Numbered from the stretch's first letter, positions 2,277-18,189 are shown. The stretch: DNA of 29,683 nt from Candidatus Altarchaeum sp. (GCA_018260615.1 JAGWDQ010000104.1:1845-31527), one strand, 5' to 3'. Notes: generated by a model from the letters alone, not told the origin. A program made the numbers and translations.

Positions 2277-2830
2277 ACGGAGACATAATAAATCTTCATA
2301 AAAATTGTGTTTAAGCCACATAATAATTCAATTTTCATACCTAATTGGTCTATAAAACGAGGGCAAAAAAACATATAGGGTCTGCCGTGTAATTATGAAA
2401 TTTAAATAAATTTTTGTTTCAATTCATTTAGCACAACTAAATTTTATTTTTATATCTGTATTGTTAATTTGTATTCTTATTATTTTAAGATGAAAATTTT
2501 GTTTATCCATGCGGACTACATAAAGATAGAGGTTAAGAAAAAAGCAATCGCAGATGCAGATGAAATAAATGAGAAAAATTTGGAAGCAAAAGAATGTTTA
2601 ATTGTATTTACAGCAGTTGAAAAGGACGACGAGAAAAACAAGACCGAAATTTTAAACAAAACAATAGACAATATTAAGGATGTTTATAGCAAGGTTAATG
2701 CAAAAAGTATAGTTGTTTATCCTTATGCCCACCTTTCAGGCAATCTGGCAAGTCCGAAATTTGCAAAGGAAATGCTTCGGGATATCTATGAAAATTTAAA
2801 ACAACAAAATTTAGGTGTAATTAAGGCACC

Positions 2831-3281
2831 CTATAGCGCCAAAACTCCGTTGGATGTAAAACAGCGGCATCCGTCAAAATGATGGAAACGCCAATAAATA
2901 TCTATTTTGATTAACATAAATATCCTTTTAAATATGCAATACATGAGTATCGGCCAAATTAAAAAAATTAACCAAATTAATTATTACCACATTTATATAA
3001 AATGAACATATAAATGGTAATGTTTATTTTCATCAAATATTAAAATAACTGATAATCATGAAATATTAATATTTTTATATCAAAATCTAATTACATTTTA
3101 CATTATTCCGTAAAATTTGAAACTAATTTTTATTAGTGAGGCACTGTCTTGTTATGAATTATTTTATACTCGGACAAAATGATTTAAAATTATTATCACT
3201 ATATAGGGATGGATTATGGACATATATTGCACATGTCTCCCAGAATTATGCCATAATTCCAACGGCATTTTGACGCTATAA
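2831..3281. mobile_element. 451-bp MITE-like non-autonomous insertion, family unassigned
   Basis: 8-bp target duplication aaggcacc at 2823-2830 and 3282-3289. Imperfect 24-bp terminal inverted repeats, ctatagcgccaaaactccgttgga versus revcomp ttatagcgtcaaaatgccgttgga (20/24). AT-rich interior with no transposase ORF. Confidence 0.88.
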
Positions 3282-3416
3282 AAGGCACCGTTCGGATATT
3301 ATAAAGGGTTTGAAGTCAAATGTAATGATGGGAATTCGCATCCGCTTAGTAAATTATGTGAATCATGCAAAACCAAAGTTGAAAAAGAAAACACAGAAAT
3401 TAAGATAACACAAGGA

Positions 3417-3644
3417 ATGGAAAATGTAATGAAAGTATTATCTTATAATGACGTTGTGGTGGTTAAAACACTATTGTTTCATGGATGTATGAGGAGAAGA
3501 AATGAAATTGCAAGAGGAACCGGAATTTCAAGGTCAAGTTTATCTAATACATTAAGAAAATTGGAAGAAAATAAAGTTGTTGAAATAGACCGAACATTTA
3601 GGGCTCACACAATAAAACTAACTGGCTGGTTTAAATCATTATGA
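3417..3644 (+). CDS. wHTH domain of cassette A, possibly expressed alone after the MITE insertion
   Basis: RNEIARGTGISRSSLSNTLRKLEENKVVEIDR...IKLTGWF is a typical archaeal MarR/TrmB-like winged helix. In-frame ATGs at 3417 and 3429. Confidence 0.6.
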   Translation: MENVMKVLSYNDVVVVKTLLFHGCMRRRNEIARGTGISRSSLSNTLRKLEENKVVEIDRTFRAHTIKLTGWFKSL

Positions 3645-3659
3645 ATCATAAAAAACCAA

Positions 3660-3720
3660 AACAATAAATGGAACAAAAGTTCATATCACATTTAATTTAT
3701 TGTTCGGTACTATTTATATA
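3660..3720 (+). promoter_or_regulatory. Putative operator plus TATA box of the secreted-protein gene (copy A)
   Basis: 10-bp inverted repeat aacaataaat (3660-3669) / atttattgtt (3695-3704) encloses gaac-aaaa-gttc (3671-3682). TTTATATA lies at 3713-3720, 44 bp before ATG 3764. Confidence 0.55.
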
Positions 3721-3763
3721 TCAATTAATAAAAAATAAAATTAAAACATAAAAAAGTAAGAAG

Positions 3764-4159
3764 ATGGATAAATTAAAAACAGGGTTTTTGGTGGTGTTGG
3801 TTGGAATGATAGTAGCAGGAATGGCAATAAGTGGAGTGACAGGATATAAGTACACAGCAAGTTGTAAGCATACCTCAACAAACTGGTTTGGAACGGAAGT
3901 ATACGATGGCGAAGAGGGATATGCTTATTGCGATGTATATCAGGAAAATGGAAATACCTGGAGATGGCATATTGATTCTAGCATAGATGATGAAATAACT
4001 GGAACGTTTTATTCCGCTAGCTTTGGCGTCCAAGCAAAAGGTTATGATGGATATTTGAATGAATGTTGCAGTTGTTATAATGGATATAATGTAGCATGGG
4101 GGTTTGGAGGATATAACAGAAATTGTGGCTATCACGAGTGCATGGCTGCATGTGGATAA
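3764..4159 (+). CDS. Cassette A variable secreted Cys/Tyr/Gly-rich protein (131 aa, ~104 aa mature, 8 Cys)
   Basis: Shared leader MDKLKTGFLVVLVG, hydrophobic core, probable signal peptidase site VTG-Y; the mature part is unique to this cassette. Confidence 0.8.
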   Translation: MDKLKTGFLVVLVGMIVAGMAISGVTGYKYTASCKHTSTNWFGTEVYDGEEGYAYCDVYQENGNTWRWHIDSSIDDEITGTFYSASFGVQAKGYDGYLNECCSCYNGYNVAWGFGGYNRNCGYHECMAACG

Positions 4160-4202
4160 TAAAAGAGAGGAATTACAGATAGAAAAATATCGCTTGTGAA
4201 TA

Positions 4203-4252
4203 TTTTTTAACTTTTTATTTTTTCTTTATTTTTCTTCTTTTTATTTTTTTTT
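4203..4252 (+). terminator. Oligo-T tract, probable archaeal terminator after the secreted-protein gene
   Basis: Long T-rich run. Similar tracts follow the cassette B (~9367-9384) and cassette C (~11104-11129) secreted genes. Confidence 0.4.
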
Positions 4253-4350
4253 AATTATCGAAGTTTTATGTATTTCAGTATGTATTTATCTATCTAATTA
4301 AAATAAAAAATTAAATTATAGGTGTAAATTTTTCAAAATGCAAATTTAAA

Positions 4351-5235
4351 ATGAAATCATTAAAAAAATATATCATTCTAATTGCTATATTTTTTATTAT
4401 TTTAGCAGGTATAATATTATACACACAGATAGGAAAGCAAGGTTCATCTGATTTTATGAATTTTTCACAAAATATATCTAATGATACATCTCAAGAATCT
4501 GAAACACAAATAATAATAGGAAAGAATATTGAATTTTCCACGACTAAAACAAACACTCTTGAAAATCTTCCATATACTTCAAAACCAAAATTTAAAATTG
4601 GAGAAAAATATACATATCAAGCAAGGAATACAGGTCCTTCTAATAAAATAGTGGAAGATTTGCGAAAACGTCCAGGCACTATTATTTATGACTATATGAC
4701 TTATCCCATAACATTTTCTGTAGAGAAAATTGAACGGATAAACAAAACAGATTATTATTTAATTTCAACCGAGGGTTCTGGGGAAGTAATTCTTGGAGTT
4801 ATAAAAGATAAGGAAGGAATGCAACGACCATTTACAACTACAAAATTTCATCTTACTAAATATTACATAAACACGGAAAATGGAGAAATATTATTTAAAG
4901 AAGGTGGCGATCCAATAGGTTTTCTTAGAATATATGAGCCAAGAATGTTAAAATTATCCGAAGGTTTAAAATGGCAAGAAAGAAGCGAAACCAATGCCAC
5001 AAACGAACAAACAATTAATGAAGAAAGTTGTGAAGTTAAAGATGTTGAGGAAATTAATGGAAAAAAGTGTTTTAAGGTTGAATGCAGAGTAAAGCAATGC
5101 AAAAATGAAGAATGTAAAGTAGTATATAGAAAATTATATTGGGTGGATATGGAAAAAAGGTTAACCTTAAAATTTCAATTATGGTATGAAAATCTTCAAA
5201 CAATGGATGTATCTCTTATTAACTATGAGAAATGA
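4351..5235 (+). CDS. Membrane-anchored extracellular protein with LolA-like beta repeats; paralog of 11159-12034
   Basis: N-terminal TM helix; motifs KPKFKIGEKYTY, VEKIERINKTDYYLI, EEINGKKCFKVE and YWVDMEKR match the 291-aa ORF. Its stop overlaps the next start (ATGA 5232-5235). The fold call is by motif resemblance only. Confidence 0.7.
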   Translation: MKSLKKYIILIAIFFIILAGIILYTQIGKQGSSDFMNFSQNISNDTSQESETQIIIGKNIEFSTTKTNTLENLPYTSKPKFKIGEKYTYQARNTGPSNKIVEDLRKRPGTIIYDYMTYPITFSVEKIERINKTDYYLISTEGSGEVILGVIKDKEGMQRPFTTTKFHLTKYYINTENGEILFKEGGDPIGFLRIYEPRMLKLSEGLKWQERSETNATNEQTINEESCEVKDVEEINGKKCFKVECRVKQCKNEECKVVYRKLYWVDMEKRLTLKFQLWYENLQTMDVSLINYEK

Positions 5236-7157
5236 ACTTTAAAATAATGTTGATAATAGTAGGAATTATTGGAATCATTAGTATGTATGTGGGATTGACA
5301 TATATTCAGGAAGATTATTTTCATCACCCGGTTAAAGAAAATACTACTAACAACAAATTCAATGAAACAATTAATAATCTCTCAAATACTCGTACAAGTG
5401 AAAAAACAAATGTGGGAAATAAGGAAAATGCAACTAATAAAATTAACAATCTTAACAACGTCTCTGCGACGACTTTGCACAACATAGATAAAAGTATCAA
5501 GGAAAACTTTACTTATATTAAAGCATATACTTATAAATATATTGCTGCAAAACATATAGGGCAACCCGATGAGAGAAAATCTTACGAAGCCAATGTAACG
5601 ACACAAATAAGAGAAACAAAGGAAATTGATAGTAAGAAATCCATAGTTGTAGAAAGTAAAACACATCCTTCAAGTGATTTGATAACATTTCACAGATCAG
5701 AATCCCCTCCTCCGGCAATAGGGATGTATGTATCTCTTTATACTTGTTCCCAATGTGAGATAAAATCTTGCGGTGGCTATTTCTGGGACAGTGTTGAATA
5801 TGTAAATGATATGTACATAAAAATAATATGGGTTCCGTGGGGAATAAAATACAAAAAGGAAAATGGCAGCATATATGAAAAATTGGAATTATGCCCAGAA
5901 AATGCAATAACTGTTATTTACTCATCAAATTCTACTGATTATGTTTATTCTTATTGGGTCGGAAAAGACAAAATTTATCCTTCATTGAATAATTTAACAG
6001 ATTATACAAAATCTAATTACCCTTTAAATGATTTGTTCCACTCTGTATTAAAGATTCATCCGCTTTTTTTGCCTGGGTTTATAAATTGTACAAGAGTTAA
6101 TTTTTCAAGTACAATAGATAAAAAATTCATAGATGCTACCTGTTCAGATAACAAAGTAAAACTTACAGAGGATACGATGGGATACGAGTGGAAAACAAGA
6201 TACAACGTGACATATATAAAAACAATTGATAACAAAAACGCAATCGTTTCGTCTTATATAGATACCCAATTTTCTTATACTCCAGACAAAAATGATACTC
6301 ATCTTTTTCTTATAAGACATGATTACTCAGCATCAGAAAATCTTTTGTGGAAAGGAATAGAAAAAGTTGGAGGAAGAGAATGCTATAAAGTAGAATACTC
6401 TATTGCAGATTTGGATAATGTAATAGGGGTTGAAACTGATATATTTACAATGTGGATTGATAAGAATAGTAGCGAGATAATTGAAGGAAAACATGAGAAA
6501 ATATTTGTGTGCAACGAATGTAAAGATAAATCCAAAAAAGTTACTCCTTTCTACATGTATGATCTCATTGAAGAATACGAAAACTATAGTTATTGCGGAG
6601 ATAAGGTATGTGACTCTGCAAATAAAGAAACTCCTGAAACTTGTTGTAAGGATTGTGGTTGTAAAGACAAAAAAGAGGAGTGCAGGGATGAAATATGTAT
6701 GCTAAAAGTCAATGATGGATATATGTTTATTGACAAAACCTTTAACTATTCCGTTGTCTTGTCAAGCGAATATTACGCGAAGAAAGCCGATGAAACAAAG
6801 ATATTGTTTTATAGCAATAACGAAACTAAAAAATATTGCACATTAAATATTCAGATAGTCCCAAGCAGAGATGTTGGTGGAGCTTATAATTCCATTGAGG
6901 ATATAAAAGAACATCTTATTGAACAAATCGGAAATTATGAAAATTTAACAGAGAAAAAACTAAAAATACGCACATCACAAAATATAGATGCCTATGAAAC
7001 AACCCTTTATGAAAAGGATAACGATATAAAAAGGACGGTTATGATAGCAAAACACAACAACTATTTTTACGTCATCACCTATATTTCTACACCAAAAGAT
7101 TATACTGCAGCATACGAGGATTATAGAAAAATGGTTCAAAGTTTTGTATTTCTTTAA
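5232..7157 (+). CDS. Membrane-anchored multidomain protein (LolA-like motif, Cys-rich module, C-terminal PsbP/DcrB-like domain)
   Basis: N-terminal TM and Asn/Thr linker; GIEKVGGRECYKVEY..MWIDK; CGDKVCD..ETPETCCKDC; C-terminal FYVITYISTPKDY...RKMVQSFVF. Confidence 0.65.
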   Translation: MNFKIMLIIVGIIGIISMYVGLTYIQEDYFHHPVKENTTNNKFNETINNLSNTRTSEKTNVGNKENATNKINNLNNVSATTLHNIDKSIKENFTYIKAYTYKYIAAKHIGQPDERKSYEANVTTQIRETKEIDSKKSIVVESKTHPSSDLITFHRSESPPPAIGMYVSLYTCSQCEIKSCGGYFWDSVEYVNDMYIKIIWVPWGIKYKKENGSIYEKLELCPENAITVIYSSNSTDYVYSYWVGKDKIYPSLNNLTDYTKSNYPLNDLFHSVLKIHPLFLPGFINCTRVNFSSTIDKKFIDATCSDNKVKLTEDTMGYEWKTRYNVTYIKTIDNKNAIVSSYIDTQFSYTPDKNDTHLFLIRHDYSASENLLWKGIEKVGGRECYKVEYSIADLDNVIGVETDIFTMWIDKNSSEIIEGKHEKIFVCNECKDKSKKVTPFYMYDLIEEYENYSYCGDKVCDSANKETPETCCKDCGCKDKKEECRDEICMLKVNDGYMFIDKTFNYSVVLSSEYYAKKADETKILFYSNNETKKYCTLNIQIVPSRDVGGAYNSIEDIKEHLIEQIGNYENLTEKKLKIRTSQNIDAYETTLYEKDNDIKRTVMIAKHNNYFYVITYISTPKDYTAAYEDYRKMVQSFVFL

Positions 7158-7259
7158 AATAATATGAGTGGTTGTAATTTGTTGAACCAGAACTTCTTAT
7201 TATCAATATTAATAATTTTATTTTGTATTCTAATTGATTAAAGTTAATGCTATTTCAGA

Positions 7260-7955
7260 ATGAAAATTTTACTCATACATGCGGACTACATAAAGATAGA
7301 GGTTAAGAAAAAAGCAATCGCAGATGCAGATGAAATAAATGAGAAAAATTTGGAAGCAAAAGAATGTTTAATTGTATTTACAGCAGTTGAAAAGGACGAC
7401 GAGAAAAACAAGACCGAAATTTTAAACAAAACAATAGACAATATTAAGGATGTTTATAGCAAGGTTAATGCAAAGTCAGTTGTAATTTATCCTTATGCTC
7501 ACTTGTCAAGCAATCTGGCAAGTCCGAAATTTGCAAAGGAAATGCTTCAGGATATCTATGAAAATTTAAAGGCACAAAATTTAGATGTAATTAAAGCACC
7601 GTTCGGATATTATAAGGGATTTGAGATAAAATATAATGATGGGAATTTGCATCCGCTTAGTAAATTATGTGAATCATGCAAAACCAAAGTTGAAAAAGAA
7701 AACACAGAAATTAAGATAACACAAGGAATGGAAAATGTAATGAAAGTATTATCTTATAATGACGTTGTGGTGGTTAAAACACTATTGTTTCATGGATGTA
7801 TGAGGAGAAGAAATGAAATTGCAAGAGGAACCGGAATTTCAAGGTCAAGTTTATCTAATACATTAAGAAAATTGGAAGAAAATAAAGTTGTTGAAATAGA
7901 CCGAACATTTAGGGCTCACACAATAAAACTAACTGGCTGGTTTAAATCATTATGA
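7260..7955 (+). CDS. Cassette B: intact ThrRS editing domain-wHTH fusion protein (231 aa)
   Basis: HADY, YPYAHLS, APFGYYKGF and HPLS motifs of the archaeal editing domain, then CESC, a linker and the wHTH, in one uninterrupted frame. Confidence 0.9.
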   Translation: MKILLIHADYIKIEVKKKAIADADEINEKNLEAKECLIVFTAVEKDDEKNKTEILNKTIDNIKDVYSKVNAKSVVIYPYAHLSSNLASPKFAKEMLQDIYENLKAQNLDVIKAPFGYYKGFEIKYNDGNLHPLSKLCESCKTKVEKENTEIKITQGMENVMKVLSYNDVVVVKTLLFHGCMRRRNEIARGTGISRSSLSNTLRKLEENKVVEIDRTFRAHTIKLTGWFKSL

Positions 7956-8118
7956 ATCATAAAAAACCAAAACAATAAATGGAACAAAAGTTCATATCAC
8001 ATTTAATTTATTGTTCGGTACTATTTATATATCAATTAATAAAAAATAAAATTAAAACATAAAAAAGTAAGAAGATGGATAAATTAAAAACAGGGTTTTT
8101 GGTGGTGTTGGTTGGAAT
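7649..8118 (+). repeat. 470-bp invariant cassette core, copy B
   Basis: Identical by eye to 3338-3807 and 10367-10836. Confidence 0.95.
7971..8031 (+). promoter_or_regulatory. Putative operator plus TATA box (copy B)
   Basis: Same inverted repeat and TTTATATA as 3660-3720. Confidence 0.55.
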
Positions 8119-9304
8119 AGTTGTATCAGTAATGCTAAGTTCGGCGAGTGCTGCAGATTTAAAAATTACTTATGTTGATGAAGTCCCCGCAGATGCTGAA
8201 GCAGATGGTGCATGGTCTGGTGCATGGTGGTCTGGAGAATATGGATGGCCCAGTATGAAATTGAATCCCACAGAATCAAATTTTATGAGTTATCTTGCAA
8301 GCTATGATTCTGTATTTTTTTCAGGACATGGTAATGACGATTGTATTGGTGGAAATCATCCGAACGGATTTAGCGGACAAGTAATGTGCTCAAACGAAAT
8401 TAATAGTTGCCAAGCCACAAATGAAGTTACTTTGATGACCTGTGAGTCATATAATGACTTTGGAGATGAACTTATAGATTCTGGCACTAGTTGTGTTGTT
8501 GGGTGGCCAGGCATCTTAAGTGCAAATCAACAAACTGGATCAGATTGGGCGTGGTATTTTTACTATTGTGCTCAATATTCAACTGATTCTGGCACATGTG
8601 AAAACTGGGCATCAGCAAATAGCGGACTATCTGGTTCTGCATCAAAAGGGAGCTGTTCAAACACACATGGAACATCGACTGGTAAGACAAATCTAAAGGA
8701 GAGTGAGACAAATCTAAATGAGAACAAGGATGCAAAAAAGAACAAACCACATATATCTAACATACCGGTTAAATTTAAGAGGTTATATGATGAGCAAGGA
8801 AATGTTACTATAACTGCAGAGGCCAATGATGGCAAAGTAATCTCTTACTTAAATGTAGCTAAATATAAAAACAAAGGTACAAAAAATATTACAAAGGAGA
8901 GAGCATTGGATATTGCTAAAGAAAAGATAAAAGTGCCTAAAGATTATGTATTGACTGAAACCGAAGATGAGGATAATAGTTACAATTTCATGTTTAACAG
9001 AGTTATTGATAACATATCACTAAAAAGTGATTGGATATGGGTGTCAGTAAACAAGGGAGCAGGAGAGATTTCTATGTGGTCAAAAGTATATCATGAAGAA
9101 TTGCCTGATTTAAAACCAACAATTTCAAAAGAGGGAGCCATTAAAATAGCCAATGAAGAGTTCAATGGTGGTGCGGAAATATCAGAACTTACCGTAGTGG
9201 GTTGTGACGAGGATGCACTCTGTTTAGCATGGTTGGTTGTAGATAGTGATAGTAAACTATACAATTACATATATTTAGATGCGCACACAGGCAAACGAAT
9301 TTAG
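8075..9304 (+). CDS. Cassette B variable secreted protein: putative clan-CD (caspase/gingipain-like) His-Cys domain plus PepSY-like C-terminal domains
   Basis: Shared leader, cleavage ASA-A; VFFSGHG and TLMTCES followed by CVVGW; C-terminal ITKERALDIAKE, ISKEGAIKIANE and WLV...IYLDAHTGK. Confidence 0.6.
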   Translation: MDKLKTGFLVVLVGIVVSVMLSSASAADLKITYVDEVPADAEADGAWSGAWWSGEYGWPSMKLNPTESNFMSYLASYDSVFFSGHGNDDCIGGNHPNGFSGQVMCSNEINSCQATNEVTLMTCESYNDFGDELIDSGTSCVVGWPGILSANQQTGSDWAWYFYYCAQYSTDSGTCENWASANSGLSGSASKGSCSNTHGTSTGKTNLKESETNLNENKDAKKNKPHISNIPVKFKRLYDEQGNVTITAEANDGKVISYLNVAKYKNKGTKNITKERALDIAKEKIKVPKDYVLTETEDEDNSYNFMFNRVIDNISLKSDWIWVSVNKGAGEISMWSKVYHEELPDLKPTISKEGAIKIANEEFNGGAEISELTVVGCDEDALCLAWLVVDSDSKLYNYIYLDAHTGKRI

Positions 9305-9399
9305 TAATATATTAGTGAAAACAAGCGAAACACTGCACAAAGACATGGGAGAGGTATACTCCCCTCTTTATTTCTTTCTTTTTTAAAAAGATATTAAAA

Positions 9400-9864
9400 A
9401 TGAATCTAAAATTAAAAATATTAATCATAAGTATTGGAATCGTTATATCAATATTGATCAGTGGATGCGTAGAAGAGAAGCCAGAAGAAAAAATAAAAAT
9501 AACAATCATGACACAATGTAAAGACAATACAACAAAAATACTAATGTATGATGGTGAAAATTATGATAAGATTTTAAATGAATCTATGAAAATTGTTAAT
9601 TCAGCAAGCAAAAAAATACAGTTGCTTGTCCCAGAAGAAATAAAAAATGAAACAATATCAGAATCTTGCGTAGAACTAACATTTTCAAAGACCATAAATA
9701 TATCCACTCGCGAAGTAGAGAATTTTAGTGCGAAAAAAATTATTATTGTGTTATCTGGAAAATACAAAGATATGATATTTATATATGATGGAAAATATTG
9801 GAATACTCAAGGGTCTGATGTTAGTACAGATAGACTGCTCTCTTTAACCAAATGTTATCTTTAA
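9400..9864 (+). CDS. Putative lipoprotein, cassette B partner gene
   Basis: Basic N-terminus, hydrophobic stretch and lipobox-like ISGC; directly follows the secreted protease-like gene. Confidence 0.7.
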   Translation: MNLKLKILIISIGIVISILISGCVEEKPEEKIKITIMTQCKDNTTKILMYDGENYDKILNESMKIVNSASKKIQLLVPEEIKNETISESCVELTFSKTINISTREVENFSAKKIIIVLSGKYKDMIFIYDGKYWNTQGSDVSTDRLLSLTKCYL

Positions 9865-10076
9865 TCTTTTGTAGTTATTTAAAAACTTTGTTTTAAATTT
9901 TCGAATAACACTGTGGGAGATTTTCACATTTTTACGCATATTTGACTTTTAGGTTTGTGTTGTTAATTTGTAGCTATTCAGCTACCTAATAGGGATAATT
10001 TAAAAATCTTGTAGATTTTCAATAAATTTTTCATCAGAAGTTTTTATTTTTATCTTTGCATTGTTAATTTGTATTC

Positions 10077-10673
10077 TTGGAATGTTTGGTTGTATTTACA
10101 GCAGTTGAAAAGGACGACGAGAAAAACAAGACCGAAATTTTAAACAAAACAATAGACAATATTATGGATGTTTATGGCAAGATTAATGCAAAATCCGTTG
10201 TAATTTATCCTTATGCTCATTTGTCAAGTGATCTGGCAAGTCCGAAATTTGCAAAGGAAATGCTTCAGAATATTTATGAAAATTTAAAGGGACAAAATTT
10301 AGATGTAATTAAGGCACCGTTCGGATATTATAGGGGCTTTGAAGTCAAATGCAATGATGGGAATTCGCATCCGCTTAGTAAATTATGTGAATCATGCAAA
10401 ACCAAAGTTGAAAAAGAAAACACAGAAATTAAGATAACACAAGGAATGGAAAATGTAATGAAAGTATTATCTTATAATGACGTTGTGGTGGTTAAAACAC
10501 TATTGTTTCATGGATGTATGAGGAGAAGAAATGAAATTGCAAGAGGAACCGGAATTTCAAGGTCAAGTTTATCTAATACATTAAGAAAATTGGAAGAAAA
10601 TAAAGTTGTTGAAATAGACCGAACATTTAGGGCTCACACAATAAAACTAACTGGCTGGTTTAAATCATTATGA
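10077..10673 (+). CDS. Cassette C: 5'-truncated ThrRS editing domain-wHTH fusion (possible TTG start; may be a pseudogene)
   Basis: 10046-10079 equals thrS upstream 12071-12104, then jumps to thrS codon 35 (ECL), so the ATG and first 34 codons are deleted. The rest is in frame to the wHTH stop. Confidence 0.7.
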   Translation: MECLVVFTAVEKDDEKNKTEILNKTIDNIMDVYGKINAKSVVIYPYAHLSSDLASPKFAKEMLQNIYENLKGQNLDVIKAPFGYYRGFEVKCNDGNSHPLSKLCESCKTKVEKENTEIKITQGMENVMKVLSYNDVVVVKTLLFHGCMRRRNEIARGTGISRSSLSNTLRKLEENKVVEIDRTFRAHTIKLTGWFKSL

Positions 10674-10836
10674 ATCATAAAAAACCAAAACAATAAATGG
10701 AACAAAAGTTCATATCACATTTAATTTATTGTTCGGTACTATTTATATATCAATTAATAAAAAATAAAATTAAAACATAAAAAAGTAAGAAGATGGATAA
10801 ATTAAAAACAGGGTTTTTGGTGGTGTTGGTTGGAAT
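10367..10836 (+). repeat. 470-bp invariant cassette core, copy C
   Basis: Identical by eye to 3338-3807 and 7649-8118. Confidence 0.95.
10689..10749 (+). promoter_or_regulatory. Putative operator plus TATA box (copy C)
   Basis: Same inverted repeat and TTTATATA as 3660-3720. Confidence 0.55.
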
Positions 10837-11056
10837 GATGGTGATCGGAGCAATAGCAAGCGGGGTAGGTGCAGATTATGCATTTTGTAAGTATCATAAT
10901 GGTGGGAGTAGTATAGGATCCTATTGTGATGCGTATACAGATTGTGGAAACGGTTATTGTATAAATAGCATTGCGTGTGATGATTGGATGTCTAACCAAC
11001 ACATAACTTTTTGTATATATGGGCAAACTTATTACTACTTTGGGTTCAACTGTTAA
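10793..11056 (+). CDS. Cassette C variable secreted Cys/Tyr-rich peptide (87 aa, ~60 aa mature, 7 Cys)
   Basis: Shared leader, probable cleavage VGA-D. It shares only CK and YCD.Y motifs with the cassette A mature peptide. Confidence 0.8.
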   Translation: MDKLKTGFLVVLVGMMVIGAIASGVGADYAFCKYHNGGSSIGSYCDAYTDCGNGYCINSIACDDWMSNQHITFCIYGQTYYYFGFNC

Positions 11057-11158: not shown

Positions 11159-12034
11159 ATGGAAAAAAAGAAAGTAAATAATTTTGTTATTGGTTTTATT
11201 GTAATTGTCGTGTTAATTTCAACATATTTAATATTGAATCATAACGCTGAAATAGAGCATTCAAATACAACAAACAGTTCGGTAAACATAGTCAACAGCT
11301 CTATTGAAAAGTATGTGGATTTCACAGAAAATGTAAAAGAAAACGCAAAAGAAATAAACTTTACTATATCTGAACACAATATAAAACCACAGTTTAAGGT
11401 TGGAGATAAATTTAAATATACAATACACGGTTCTTCGCTTAATCCAAAGAATAATTCTGCAGACATAAATGGTATTTTAGAATGCAATGTTGAAAAATTG
11501 GAAAGGATTAATGGAAAGGATTGCTATTTGCTTGTTTCAAAAACACAAACATCTCTACCAGATAATTCTCCACTTAAAGCAATTCTTTCAGAAACAAAAC
11601 ATTGGGTAGACAAAGATACGGGAAAAATCATAAAAACGAGTATACAAGAGAGCATGATTCAGCAGAAAGGAAAAGTAATAGAAATGCCTTCTTCAGAAGC
11701 AACAATACCTAATGAAACATCTGATATATATGGAAATATTATGTATTATCCTTGGATGTTAGCATTAGATGATAATTTTGAAATGAAAGTTAATGAAAAT
11801 AGTCAGGGTATAAAAACTTCTTTTGTAAGTGTGTTTAAGGTGATTGGAAAAGAAAAAATAAATGACAGAGATTGTTTTAAAGTTGAGTTGAGGGTATTAG
11901 ATGAAAATAAGCATGTTCTTCTGCGAGAAAATATATGGGTTGATATAAAAAAAAGGGTTTTAGTAAAGGCAGAAACATACTCTGAAAACTTAAAAGTTGG
12001 AGAGGTAAATTTGATAGATTATTCTAGCATTTAG
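11159..12034 (+). CDS. Membrane-anchored LolA-like repeat protein; paralog of 4351-5235
   Basis: TM helix; KPQFKVGDKFKY, VEKLERINGKDCYLL, WVDKDTGKII, EKINDRDCFKVE, IWVDIKKR. Confidence 0.7.
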   Translation: MEKKKVNNFVIGFIVIVVLISTYLILNHNAEIEHSNTTNSSVNIVNSSIEKYVDFTENVKENAKEINFTISEHNIKPQFKVGDKFKYTIHGSSLNPKNNSADINGILECNVEKLERINGKDCYLLVSKTQTSLPDNSPLKAILSETKHWVDKDTGKIIKTSIQESMIQQKGKVIEMPSSEATIPNETSDIYGNIMYYPWMLALDDNFEMKVNENSQGIKTSFVSVFKVIGKEKINDRDCFKVELRVLDENKHVLLRENIWVDIKKRVLVKAETYSENLKVGEVNLIDYSSI

Positions 12035-12151: not shown

Positions 12152-14071
12152 ATGAAAATTTTGTTTATCCATGCGGACTACATAAAGATAGAGGTTAAGA
12201 AAAAAGCAATCGCAGATGCAGATGAAATAAATGAGAAAAATTTGGAAGCAAAAGAATGTTTAATTGTATTTACAGCAGTTGAAAAGGACGACGAGAAAAA
12301 CAAGACCGAAATTTTAAACAAAACAATAGACAATATTAAGGATGTTTATAGCAAGGTTAATGCAAAAAGTATAGTTGTTTATCCTTATGCCCACCTTTCA
12401 GGCAATCTGGCAAGTCCGAAATTTGCAAAGGAAATGCTTCGGGATATCTATGAAAATTTAAAACAACAAAATTTAGGTGTAATTAAGGCACCGTTCGGAT
12501 ATTATAAGGGATTTGAAGTCAAATGTAAGGGACATCCGCTCAGCGAATTAAGCAGAGAAATTAAGGTTGAGGAAAAGGAGGAGGGAAAGGAAAAAGAAAG
12601 GGCTGTTGTTAAGGAAGAAACAAAAATCACAAGAGAGGATGTTGTAAAAGATATAAAATCAGAGTTTTTTGTTCTGGCACCGACAGGAGAGGAATACAAA
12701 ATTGACATGGAAAATTTAAAGGAAAATTTAGACAGGTATGAAATTTTTAACAAATTTCCGACATTAAAGAAGTATATAGTGGCAGAGGAATTGAAGAATG
12801 TGTCATCGGCAGAACCGCCTTCAATAAAGGCAATGGTGCATCTGGAATTGATTGATTATGAGGGAGCAAGTGATTCGGGAAATTTTCGTTTTTATCCGAA
12901 AGGAAATTTAATATTTGATTTGTTAAGCGACTGGGCAGAGGAAATTGCTTTGGAGCGTTTAGGTGCAATGAAGATTGAAACCCCCATCATCTATGACTGG
13001 AGTATGCCTGACATCAGAGAGCAGGGACAGTCATTTCATGAAAGACATTATATGGTAAAAGTTCCGGATGATGAAAATAAGGAATTTGTTTTGAGATTTG
13101 CGGGTGATTTCGGATTGTTCAGGATTATGAAGCAGATAAATATGAGTTATGACCAGTTACCCATAAGAATGTATGAATTTTCAAAGAGTTTCAGGTATGA
13201 AAAGAAAGGAGAGTTAAGCGGACTGAGAAGATTGCGGGCATTCCACATGCCTGATGTGCATTCTTTCTGCAGGGATATTGAACAGGGCTGGGACGAATAT
13301 GAAAATTTATATAAAAGTTATAACGATCTGGCAAACGCAACGGGAATTGAATATGCGGTTGTTTTCAGGATTGTTAAGGAATTTTACGACAAGTATAAAG
13401 AGCGACTTATAAATTTACTCAAATACTCGGATAAGCCGGCATTTATTGAGGTCTTATCAGCAATGAAACATTACTGGGCGGTTAAGCACGAATTTCAGGG
13501 AATTGATTCTGTTGACGGAAACTGTCAGTTAAGCACAGTTCAGCTGGATGTTAAAGATGCAAGTACCTACGGAATAAATTTTGTTGATAATGACGGGAAG
13601 AAAAAGGGCTGCACAATTTGTCATTCGTCAATCGGCTCAATTGAAAGATGGATGTTTGAAATTCTGGAAAACGCTCTGAAGTCAGAAAAACCAATGCTTC
13701 CGTTATGGCTCTCGCCTACGCAATGCAGAATCATTCCCGTCTCAAAGGAATTTTTAAATTTTTCCGATGAAATTATGCGTGAAATTGAAAAAGCAGACAT
13801 CAGGATTGATATTGATGACCGAAATGAAACATTAAGTGCAAAAATCAGAAAGGCAGAGCGGGAATGGACTCCGTATATTGTTGTAATCGGAGAAAAAGAA
13901 AGGGAAAGCAAAAAATTTTCAGTAAGGCGGAGAGAGGATAATCAAAATTTAAATCCGGGAATTTCAGAACTGGCTGATGAAATTAAAAGCAAAACAAAAG
14001 GAATGCCATTCAGGAAATCAAACCTTTCAAAATATTTGTCAAAGAGGCCTATTTTTGTCGGATATACTTAA
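12152..14071 (+). CDS. thrS: Threonine--tRNA ligase, archaeal type with N-terminal editing domain (639 aa)
   Basis: Editing-domain motifs HADY, YPYAHLS and APFGYYKGF..CKGHPLSEL; class II motifs FRYEKKGELSGLRRLRAFHMPDVH and SIGSIERW; anticodon-binding PLWLSPTQ...IVVIGEKE. ATG 12152 is preferred to the ORF-track start 12068. Confidence 0.97.
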   Translation: MKILFIHADYIKIEVKKKAIADADEINEKNLEAKECLIVFTAVEKDDEKNKTEILNKTIDNIKDVYSKVNAKSIVVYPYAHLSGNLASPKFAKEMLRDIYENLKQQNLGVIKAPFGYYKGFEVKCKGHPLSELSREIKVEEKEEGKEKERAVVKEETKITREDVVKDIKSEFFVLAPTGEEYKIDMENLKENLDRYEIFNKFPTLKKYIVAEELKNVSSAEPPSIKAMVHLELIDYEGASDSGNFRFYPKGNLIFDLLSDWAEEIALERLGAMKIETPIIYDWSMPDIREQGQSFHERHYMVKVPDDENKEFVLRFAGDFGLFRIMKQINMSYDQLPIRMYEFSKSFRYEKKGELSGLRRLRAFHMPDVHSFCRDIEQGWDEYENLYKSYNDLANATGIEYAVVFRIVKEFYDKYKERLINLLKYSDKPAFIEVLSAMKHYWAVKHEFQGIDSVDGNCQLSTVQLDVKDASTYGINFVDNDGKKKGCTICHSSIGSIERWMFEILENALKSEKPMLPLWLSPTQCRIIPVSKEFLNFSDEIMREIEKADIRIDIDDRNETLSAKIRKAEREWTPYIVVIGEKERESKKFSVRRREDNQNLNPGISELADEIKSKTKGMPFRKSNLSKYLSKRPIFVGYT

Positions 14072-18012: not shown

Positions 18013-18189
18013 TTATCCTTCCCTAACAATGTTATCAATTAAAGCAAAGACATCAGGTAAATTTATATCGTCATCATAATTAGCAAATTTATAATATGTC
18101 CTGTTCTGGCTTAAATTTTTGTTTTCGCTTAAATATTCGGGCATTTCAACAGCATCAAAGATGTCGGTTGCTTTCGGTTGTTCAGACAT
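18013..18189 (-). CDS. Stand-alone dockerin-like mini-ORF (58 aa), duplicate of the surface-protein C-terminus; not in the ORF track
   Basis: MSEQPKATDIFDAVEMPEYLSENKNLSQNRTYYKFANYDDDINLPDVFALIDNIVREG*. 18024-18174 matches 19345-19495 (8 mismatches in 151 bp). The ATG lies 2 bp after the ATPase stop. Confidence 0.7.
   Translation of the reverse strand: MSEQPKATDIFDAVEMPEYLSENKNLSQNRTYYKFANYDDDINLPDVFALIDNIVREG

Follow-up and report, generated by a model that had tools for sequence, protein, structure and literature searches.

How can three stretches of DNA that lead into different genes be identical to the last base, and what do they share beyond that identity? The question is raised by a locus of the groundwater archaeon Candidatus Altarchaeum sp. 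(GCA_018260615.1, JAGWDQ010000104.1:1845-31527; the whole stretch of 29,683 nt is called the window here), in which a 470-bp block occurs at 3338-3807, 7649-8118 and 10367-10836 (copies A, B and C) and, as assembled, matches at 470/470 positions in all three pairs. Mismatches start at -1 or -15 on the left-hand side and at +470 to +473 on the right; for flanks at 92-94% identity, exact identity over 470 bp would arise by chance with P about 1e-13. Each block comprises the final 26 codons upstream of the start of a winged helix-turn-helix (wHTH) gene, the 75 codons of the wHTH, 119 bp of intergenic DNA and the first 14 codons of the next gene, the leader MDKLKTGFLVVLVG. An earlier note on this DNA took the arrangement for an archaeal analogue of bacterial polymorphic toxin loci, and its identity for a sign of very recent exchange or homogenisation. 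Our own reading, which we consider likely, is that three expression cassettes stand in tandem in the Altiarchaeum chromosome and that the block is the head common to them, with the history proposed below. The cassettes lie upstream of an intact thrS in a chromosomal locus flanked by housekeeping genes, and each head consists of a thrS editing-domain remnant fused to the wHTH, followed by a promoter region and the leader.

Three other assemblies of the same population, reached by protein look-ups, show what is constant in the block: L101 (a JGI contig of 31,513 nt, 3300029890), L102 (NCBI GCA_002841105.1) and L103 (an ENA MEGAHIT contig, ERZ27239246). In L101 the copies match at 453/472 (A-B), 446/471 (A-C) and 454/472 (B-C) positions, or 94.7-96.2%, and, against copy B, five amino acids are changed in the wHTH of A and five in that of C; the three identical copies reported earlier are therefore a property of the window as assembled, and not of L101. 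Strictly invariant across the three L101 copies are 3338-3393 and 3740-3807, the latter running from -24 to +44 about the ATG. The end of identity was placed at codon 15 by the earlier note, and a sharp loss of similarity after codon 14-15 recurs throughout the assemblies and lineages. Two leader-bearing genes of the sister species G001 share -17 to +44 at 98%, one of them behind a different promoter. The constancy of -24 to +44 probably reflects selection on translation start and export. An RNA element was considered as the cause of leader conservation and dropped, because the 5' end of the mRNA (-21 to +67) has no significant fold (z = -1.3).

Each head brings three elements to the gene that follows it. 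The first is a small winged-helix regulator joined to the remnant of a thrS editing domain, the second a promoter region that contains a TATA-like box and a conserved palindrome, and the third a 5' untranslated region (5'UTR) with the opening 14 codons of a signal peptide of Sec type. In a Pfam scan the wHTH matches HxlR at 21.9 bits against a cut-off of 20.8, with 12 further HTH families under their cut-offs. The palindrome is a perfect 10-bp inverted repeat, AACAATAAAT/ATTTATTGTT, at 3660-3669 and 3695-3704, and the TATA-like TTTATATA lies at 3713-3720, 44-51 nt upstream of the ATG. Both arms and the box are largely kept in four lineages, which suggests that the wHTH may regulate the head promoter. 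A scan for sigma-70 promoters and terminators found sites no commoner than in shuffled sequence, on a model that is not meaningful for an archaeon. The fusion of editing domain and wHTH is kept as an intact open reading frame (ORF) in at least three lineages (window 7260-7955; L042 623-1315; L031 12192-12998, minus strand). Between lineages the ratio of nonsynonymous to synonymous substitution rates (dN/dS) is 0.18-0.45 for the wHTH with the fused editing domain, and 0.19-0.32 for the editing-domain part. Since this indicates purifying selection, the regulator is probably in use, and the fusion may be a working protein and not a scar. Paralogues of the block wHTH also form the cytoplasmic C-terminal domain of two proteins of 319 and 383 aa (G000:C100:6182-12021, L032; G000:C126:1691-2842, L033), each of which spans the membrane once and has an outer domain as well as a signal peptide. 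The paralogue on C100 heads a cluster that encodes a 507-aa Cys-repeat protein, an ABC-2 permease and several LolA-like proteins; the C-terminal wHTH of a membrane-anchored protein heading such an ABC-2 cluster is 53% identical to the block wHTH.

The leader is not limited to the three secreted proteins of the window, a limit that would have refuted the earlier note. A search of 61 class genomes finds its exact form three times here and twice in G001, with no further occurrence, and JGI contigs L042 and L043 carry it as well; it precedes at least five types of protein body in four lineages (131, 409 and 87/88 aa and two different proteins of 85 aa), and the combination of constant leader, variable bodies and varying partners that the earlier note described is thereby borne out. 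Close variants (MDFKTG[IM]LVMLVG and similar) stand on about 10 more small secreted proteins, and the family numbers at least 15 small secreted proteins, specific to Altiarchaeum. A looser leader DNA pattern has nine sites in this genome, four in G001 and two in G002, and a control pattern none; a degenerate pattern found no match among JGI metagenome contigs, which is not evidence of absence, as protein searches reached two JGI contigs with the exact leader. The proteins found by pattern are 85-175 aa long, with the 409-aa protein as an outlier, and start with MD[KF](L)K[TI]G[FIM]LV[VM]LVG followed by a variable hydrophobic stretch. Similarity between body types stops at codon 13-15 in all comparisons, which supports the earlier note on this point, and the mature proteins have diverged strongly and are rich in Tyr, Gly, Trp and Cys. 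Judged by eye, all members have the Sec-type layout of signal peptidase I substrates (basic n-region, hydrophobic h-region, small residues at -3/-1), and their leaders end in cleavage-type motifs, VSA, VGA, ASA or VNA, followed by a residue other than Cys. A class III (pilin-type) signal peptide, raised by the KTG-F motif, was rejected on the AxA/VxA cleavage motifs about 26 residues into all members.

Downstream of the leader proteins, the arrangement is equally regular. A gene for a membrane-anchored LolA-like protein lies within a few hundred bases in 12/13 distinct cases, and body identity tracks partner identity, with bodies diverging faster (56% against 81% for the C79/C80 pair); the expectation that each body type would keep its own partner type is thus supported. 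A profile of the LolA-like partner matches at 20 places in this genome and at 6-11 in each of three sister genomes. Outside the genus it matches in one genome only among the other 57 of the class, and it retrieves 304 clusters from a library of 1.8 billion proteins; two distant homologues lie on contigs too short to show gene neighbours. The partner paralogues are 25-37% identical to one another, and ABC-2 transporter genes lie within or beside some of the family's loci. We found no paper linking Altiarchaeum with LolA and no published description of this leader-paired secreted family, which is found almost only in Altiarchaeum. A second pair of genes with a shared leader was seen in L031 (G001:C56, 14025-17764, minus strand; also L039-L041). 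The first 24 residues (MAHIIKNT...) are common to a 376-aa Peptidase_M10 protein and a 751-aa DUF7689 protein, whose genes match over about 280 nt, part of it upstream DNA, at 92.5% and have nothing else in common.

The three bodies of the window were described as different from one another, which is true of one of them. The 409-aa body is unrelated to the others and shares the leader alone with the family, but the 131-aa and 87-aa bodies, which have the motifs A.CK and YCD.Y in common, are diverged paralogues of each other and of an 85-aa body. Only in cassette B does the head clearly stand before an unrelated body. That body has no homologue in the 61 class genomes, a search of the sequences of solved structures gave nothing under E 0.37, and the G+C content around it is 35% against about 29% nearby. 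The two partners of body A have sister-species relatives at 47% and 41% identity; body C has orthologues in three other lineages (87%, 86% and 67%), and orthologues of its 291-aa partner are 84-89% identical. The 294-aa partner of body A scores only 14.2 bits with PF17131 and is nevertheless homologous to the 291-aa partner (27% identity, E 1.5e-14). No toxin or immunity family was detected by Pfam in bodies or partners, and relaxing the threshold to E up to 5 added nothing useful. Predicted folds are of too low confidence for fold comparison: the mean predicted local distance difference test (pLDDT) score is 33.8 when the 409-aa body is modelled from its single sequence and 44.0 when the 87-aa body is modelled from a six-row alignment.

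Among known systems the closest match is the erp (ospE/ospF/elp) upstream homology box family of Borrelia burgdorferi, whose paralogues have a conserved promoter/operator and leader peptide and unrelated or divergent mature parts, and are explained as descendants of one promoter/leader sequence that recombined with diverse bodies; the genes are co-expressed (PMC10016077). Both families combine constant regulatory DNA and leader with a variable body. There is no sequence homology between them, however, and the likeness is one of analogy only: erp products are lipoproteins encoded on cp32 prophage plasmids of a bacterium, whereas the genes described here are chromosomal and tandem in an archaeon, their signal peptides look like signal peptidase I substrates without a lipobox Cys, the head bears its own regulator gene, and the bodies have LolA-like partners. 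A second parallel comes from conotoxins, the mussel MgCRP-I proteins and frog antimicrobial peptides, which are described as having a conserved signal and a hypervariable mature part (PMC4558851, PMC11568388). They too are small, Cys-rich secreted proteins of expanded multigene families with fast-diverging mature parts, but their genes are eukaryotic and without linked partners, and in the Altiarchaeum family conservation covers no more than the first half of the signal peptide and reaches into the 5'UTR. Because families of this promoter-plus-leader kind are familiar from bacteria and animals, what we describe is a genus-restricted new example of a known evolutionary pattern and introduces no new principle.

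Altiarchaeum has an outer membrane, and the family is a good target for asking what crosses this unusual envelope and how archaeal secreted repertoires diversify. In this two-membrane archaeon one might go further and regard the 5'UTR and 14-codon leader, with or without the wHTH and promoter, as a portable expression-and-export handle for new secreted effectors and their LolA-like partners, foreign genes such as that for the 409-aa body included, the interchangeable pairs being possibly archaeocins with their immunity proteins; we hold this to be speculative and rather unlikely.

The polymorphic-toxin interpretation deserves a more detailed comparison, for which the criteria were taken from PMC4436062. 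Such systems have a conserved N-terminal trafficking region, a variable toxin C-terminus, a downstream immunity gene and promoterless orphan modules that are activated by recombination (PMC4436062), and the Altiarchaeum loci resemble CdiA-CT/CdiI, Rhs and MafB in their constant N-terminus, variable remainder, specific partner directly downstream and tandem arrays (PMC4436062). If the resemblance were functional, the bodies would be toxins or archaeocins, the partners would confer immunity, and the head would serve as a homology handle for swapping modules between cells or loci. One N-terminus with different C-termini is indeed what we observe, a partner gene follows 12/13 leader proteins with its type tracking the body, bodies diverge faster than partners, an unrelated body without class homologues stands behind the same leader, and ABC-2 transporter genes lie beside some of the loci. 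Lantibiotic immunity combines an anchored immunity protein with an ABC transporter, and the ABC-2 neighbours resemble such an arrangement. Most of the defining features are missing, however. The constant region amounts to 14 residues and non-coding DNA, with no trafficking domain; no toxin domain is recognisable, Pfam finding only PepSY/DUF4901 in the 409-aa body; and the partners are, by their sequences, extracytoplasmic LolA-like proteins. There are no promoterless orphan modules among the three cassettes, all of which have a regulator, promoter, start codon and leader, so that expression needs no swapping. The junctions, moreover, are old and common to several lineages, and the 87-aa body, with dN/dS of 0.3-0.8, shows no positive selection. 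We judge an archaeal counterpart of polymorphic toxin loci to be distinctly unlikely; to us the loci look like an ordinary fast-evolving secreted-protein family, and nothing shows toxin swapping.

In proposing how the cassettes arose, we need to account for the thrS sequences in front of them. A thrS 5' copy, comprising the promoter and the archaeal threonyl-tRNA synthetase (ThrRS) editing domain (Pfam PF08915, E 1e-45), lies upstream of each block, and five such copies stand in tandem, counting an 80-nt stub at 1-80; in L101, copy A differs from the real thrS by 3 mismatches in 353 nt, and copy C is without the promoter-proximal part and the first ~35 codons. In an alignment of the units, thrS homology stops at the same base in all copies, just ahead of the block start, and the same thrS/wHTH junction and head occur in G001 and on L042 and L043. 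Since the junction is the same in all copies and in other lineages, it was made once, and would most simply have arisen as the joint of a tandem duplication ending inside thrS. The downstream genes form a family that keeps its first 13-14 residues and diverges fast in the remainder, followed by the membrane-anchored LolA-like partner, and, as cassette B shows, the head can also come to stand before an unrelated gene without relatives in the class.

The heads have a different history from the genes that they precede. Head identity is 95.3-97.2% within this genome, 98.9% within G001 and 88-93% between lineages, a pattern of within-genome copies closer than those between lineages that recalls the concerted evolution of tandem repeats. 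The genes of cassette C are orthologous across lineages, at 90% over 2 kb; head C matches the head of the orthologous L042 cassette at 90.6%, no closer than heads A and B do. Because heads group by genome and bodies are old paralogues, the copying or conversion of heads must be later than the split of the lineages and much later than the divergence of the bodies, and the clustering points to duplication or gene conversion between cassettes inside each genome as the probable means.

The five tandem thrS 5' copies, stub included, could also be taken as attachment or homology sites, the cassettes being mobile units that entered at the thrS 5' end by a site-specific recombinase or as circles integrating by Campbell-type single crossover, and the three cassettes can be read equally well as a cycle in the assembly graph. 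We find this very unlikely, given that the single identical thrS/wHTH junction in all copies was made once and not at each insertion, that an ORF and Pfam scan found no recombinase or integrase gene in the 14-kb array, and that the array of G001, with its thrS' pieces, sits far from thrS, with ABC-transporter genes on one side and phosphate-transporter genes on the other. In the window, thrS 5' copies and not hairpin recombination sites bound the cassettes; the array thus differs from integron-like cassette arrays, having neither an integrase or recombinase nor a folded site at its boundaries. The G001-type 87-aa protein recurs on six NCBI contigs, and the three of these that were inspected have the same array in the same gene order; an array adjoining thrS was not found in the three sister genomes.

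There remains the perfect identity of the window copies, which we consider very likely to result from assembler collapse of near-identical repeats onto the version of copy B. Window and L101 differ at 49 places over 19,306 aligned nt, every one inside repeats, with none in about 15.4 kb of unique DNA. The differences fall in thrS' copy A (5), block A (19, positions between 3394 and 3709), block B (one 2-nt indel at 7968), block C (14, 10500-10768, where L101 and L103 agree), the real thrS 5' end (6) and an unrelated repeat, D5 (3); outside the head blocks the differing stretches are 2570-2624, 12232-12487 and 18031-18035. Copy A of L101 is found exactly in L102 and copy C exactly in L103, and at 27/27 differing sites checked the window carries the base of copy B. 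At five thrS' sites the window has the base of copy B in all three copies, where copy A and the real thrS of L101 share another, and a run of ~200 nt over which copy B and the real thrS match perfectly in the window is interrupted in L101 by 5 mismatches (7340-7394). Two contigs of this metagenome-assembled genome (MAG), C44 and C93, overlap by exactly 55 nt, which we read as the mark of a k=55 graph assembly. A k-mer graph assembler merges near-identical repeats and threads a single consensus through each passage, and such collapse in short-read metagenomes is the ordinary explanation for perfect identity.

That the window does hold three perfect copies might instead mean that heads A and C of this strain were very recently converted by head B, which the clustering of heads by genome makes plausible in itself, and that the other assemblies represent a sister population, but this is extremely unlikely, as it calls for several independent conversions, all toward copy B, that would have hit heads A and C as well as five thrS' sites, the latter in copy A and in the real thrS alike, with no substitution meanwhile in the unique DNA, leaves the D5 differences to be explained as well, and has three assemblies from different pipelines against it. 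Consensus collapse, which the earlier note had itself named as the alternative, thus holds for the exact identity, and because of this its case for very recent exchange falls: differences of 3-5% separate the real copies, with the regulator changed at the amino-acid level too, and the thrS/wHTH and codon 14/15 junctions are old, being common to other lineages. In this MAG, diverged repeat copies were overwritten by one version during assembly, and claims of exact repeat identity on this contig need other assemblies or reads. L102 is without 314 bp (at 4316/4317) that correspond to window 7499-7812, where editing-domain copy B ends and head B has its first 164 nt; the gap is either a population variant or another repeat-driven misassembly. 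Contigs C44 and C93 (G000) end in or near MDFKTGILVMLVG-type leaders, and C80 has an N gap just upstream of a leader; leader regions therefore interrupt the assembly, and further members of the family may be missing.

Several points weigh against the account given here. Collapse is deduced from the agreement of four assemblies and not from reads. Recent duplication with replacement of the body would explain the grouping of heads by genome as well as gene conversion would, and the G001 array lies away from thrS, so that an origin by tandem duplication at thrS needs a later rearrangement. The selection proposed for the leader is read from its conservation, and any function of bodies and partners is conjectural. 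Taken with these points, we still regard a common head for three tandem cassettes as the likely reading, and the features on which it is based are collected in Table 1.

Table 1. Coordinates of cassette features in the window
Feature	Position	Strand	Remarks
thrS 5' copy A	2442..2830	+	promoter and 115 editing-domain codons; severed from its wHTH by a mobile element
MITE-like (miniature inverted-repeat transposable element) insertion	2831..3281	.	451 bp, splitting the copy A fusion gene; inverted ends ~23 bp
Head block copy A	3338..3807	+	end of linker from ThrRS editing-domain remnant to wHTH, wHTH, promoter region, leader codons 1-14; differs from the window at 19 positions in three other assemblies
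wHTH, copy A	3417-3644	+	
Intergenic promoter region, copy A	3645-3763	+	
Candidate operator/promoter	3660..3720	+	inverted repeat and TATA-like box; basis: sequence
Truly invariant core	3740..3807; also 8051-8118, 10768-10836	+	likely 5'UTR (-24) to signal-peptide codons 1-14/15; same in all three L101 copies
Body A	3764..4159	+	131-aa secreted protein rich in Cys, Tyr, Gly; Sec-type signal peptide; no Pfam family
Partners of body A	4351..7157	+	294-aa membrane-anchored LolA-like (4351-5235) and 641-aa anchored protein (5232-7157)
thrS 5' copy B	7238..7667	+	full editing domain, in frame into wHTH (231-aa ORF)
Head block copy B	7649..8118	+	inside and after intact 231-aa fusion ORF (7260-7955, editing domain and wHTH)
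Body B	8075..9304	+	409 aa; first 14 residues of the family, N-terminal domain without assignment, C-terminal PepSY/DUF4901
Partner of body B	9400..9864	+	154 aa; lipobox-like ISGC motif; no relatives found
thrS 5' copy C	10041..10385	+	upstream motif joined straight to codon ~36 of editing domain; internal deletion
Head block copy C	10367..10836	+	inside and after 5'-truncated 198-aa fusion ORF (10077-10673)
Body C	10793..11056	+	87-aa secreted protein, 7 Cys; commonest body type
Partner of body C	11159..12034	+	291-aa membrane-anchored LolA-like; Pfam LolA_like PF17131, 31.1 bits vs cut-off 30
Intact thrS (threonyl-tRNA synthetase)	12152..14071	+	end of array

Two features at the left-hand end of the array concern copy A and its surroundings. 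The MITE-like element that splits the fusion gene of copy A is bounded by an 8-bp target duplication, AAGGCACC, at 2823-2830 and 3282-3289, and has four identical copies in the genome. Identical copies are present on C105, C111 and C17, and C145 has one at its end. Between the thrS stub and thrS' copy A, at 129-2276, lie two genes of another kind, one for a 320-aa protein with seven repeats of ~33 aa (HF.KIP.A motif) and one for a 384-aa secreted NosD/beta-helix protein whose end weakly resembles a dockerin.

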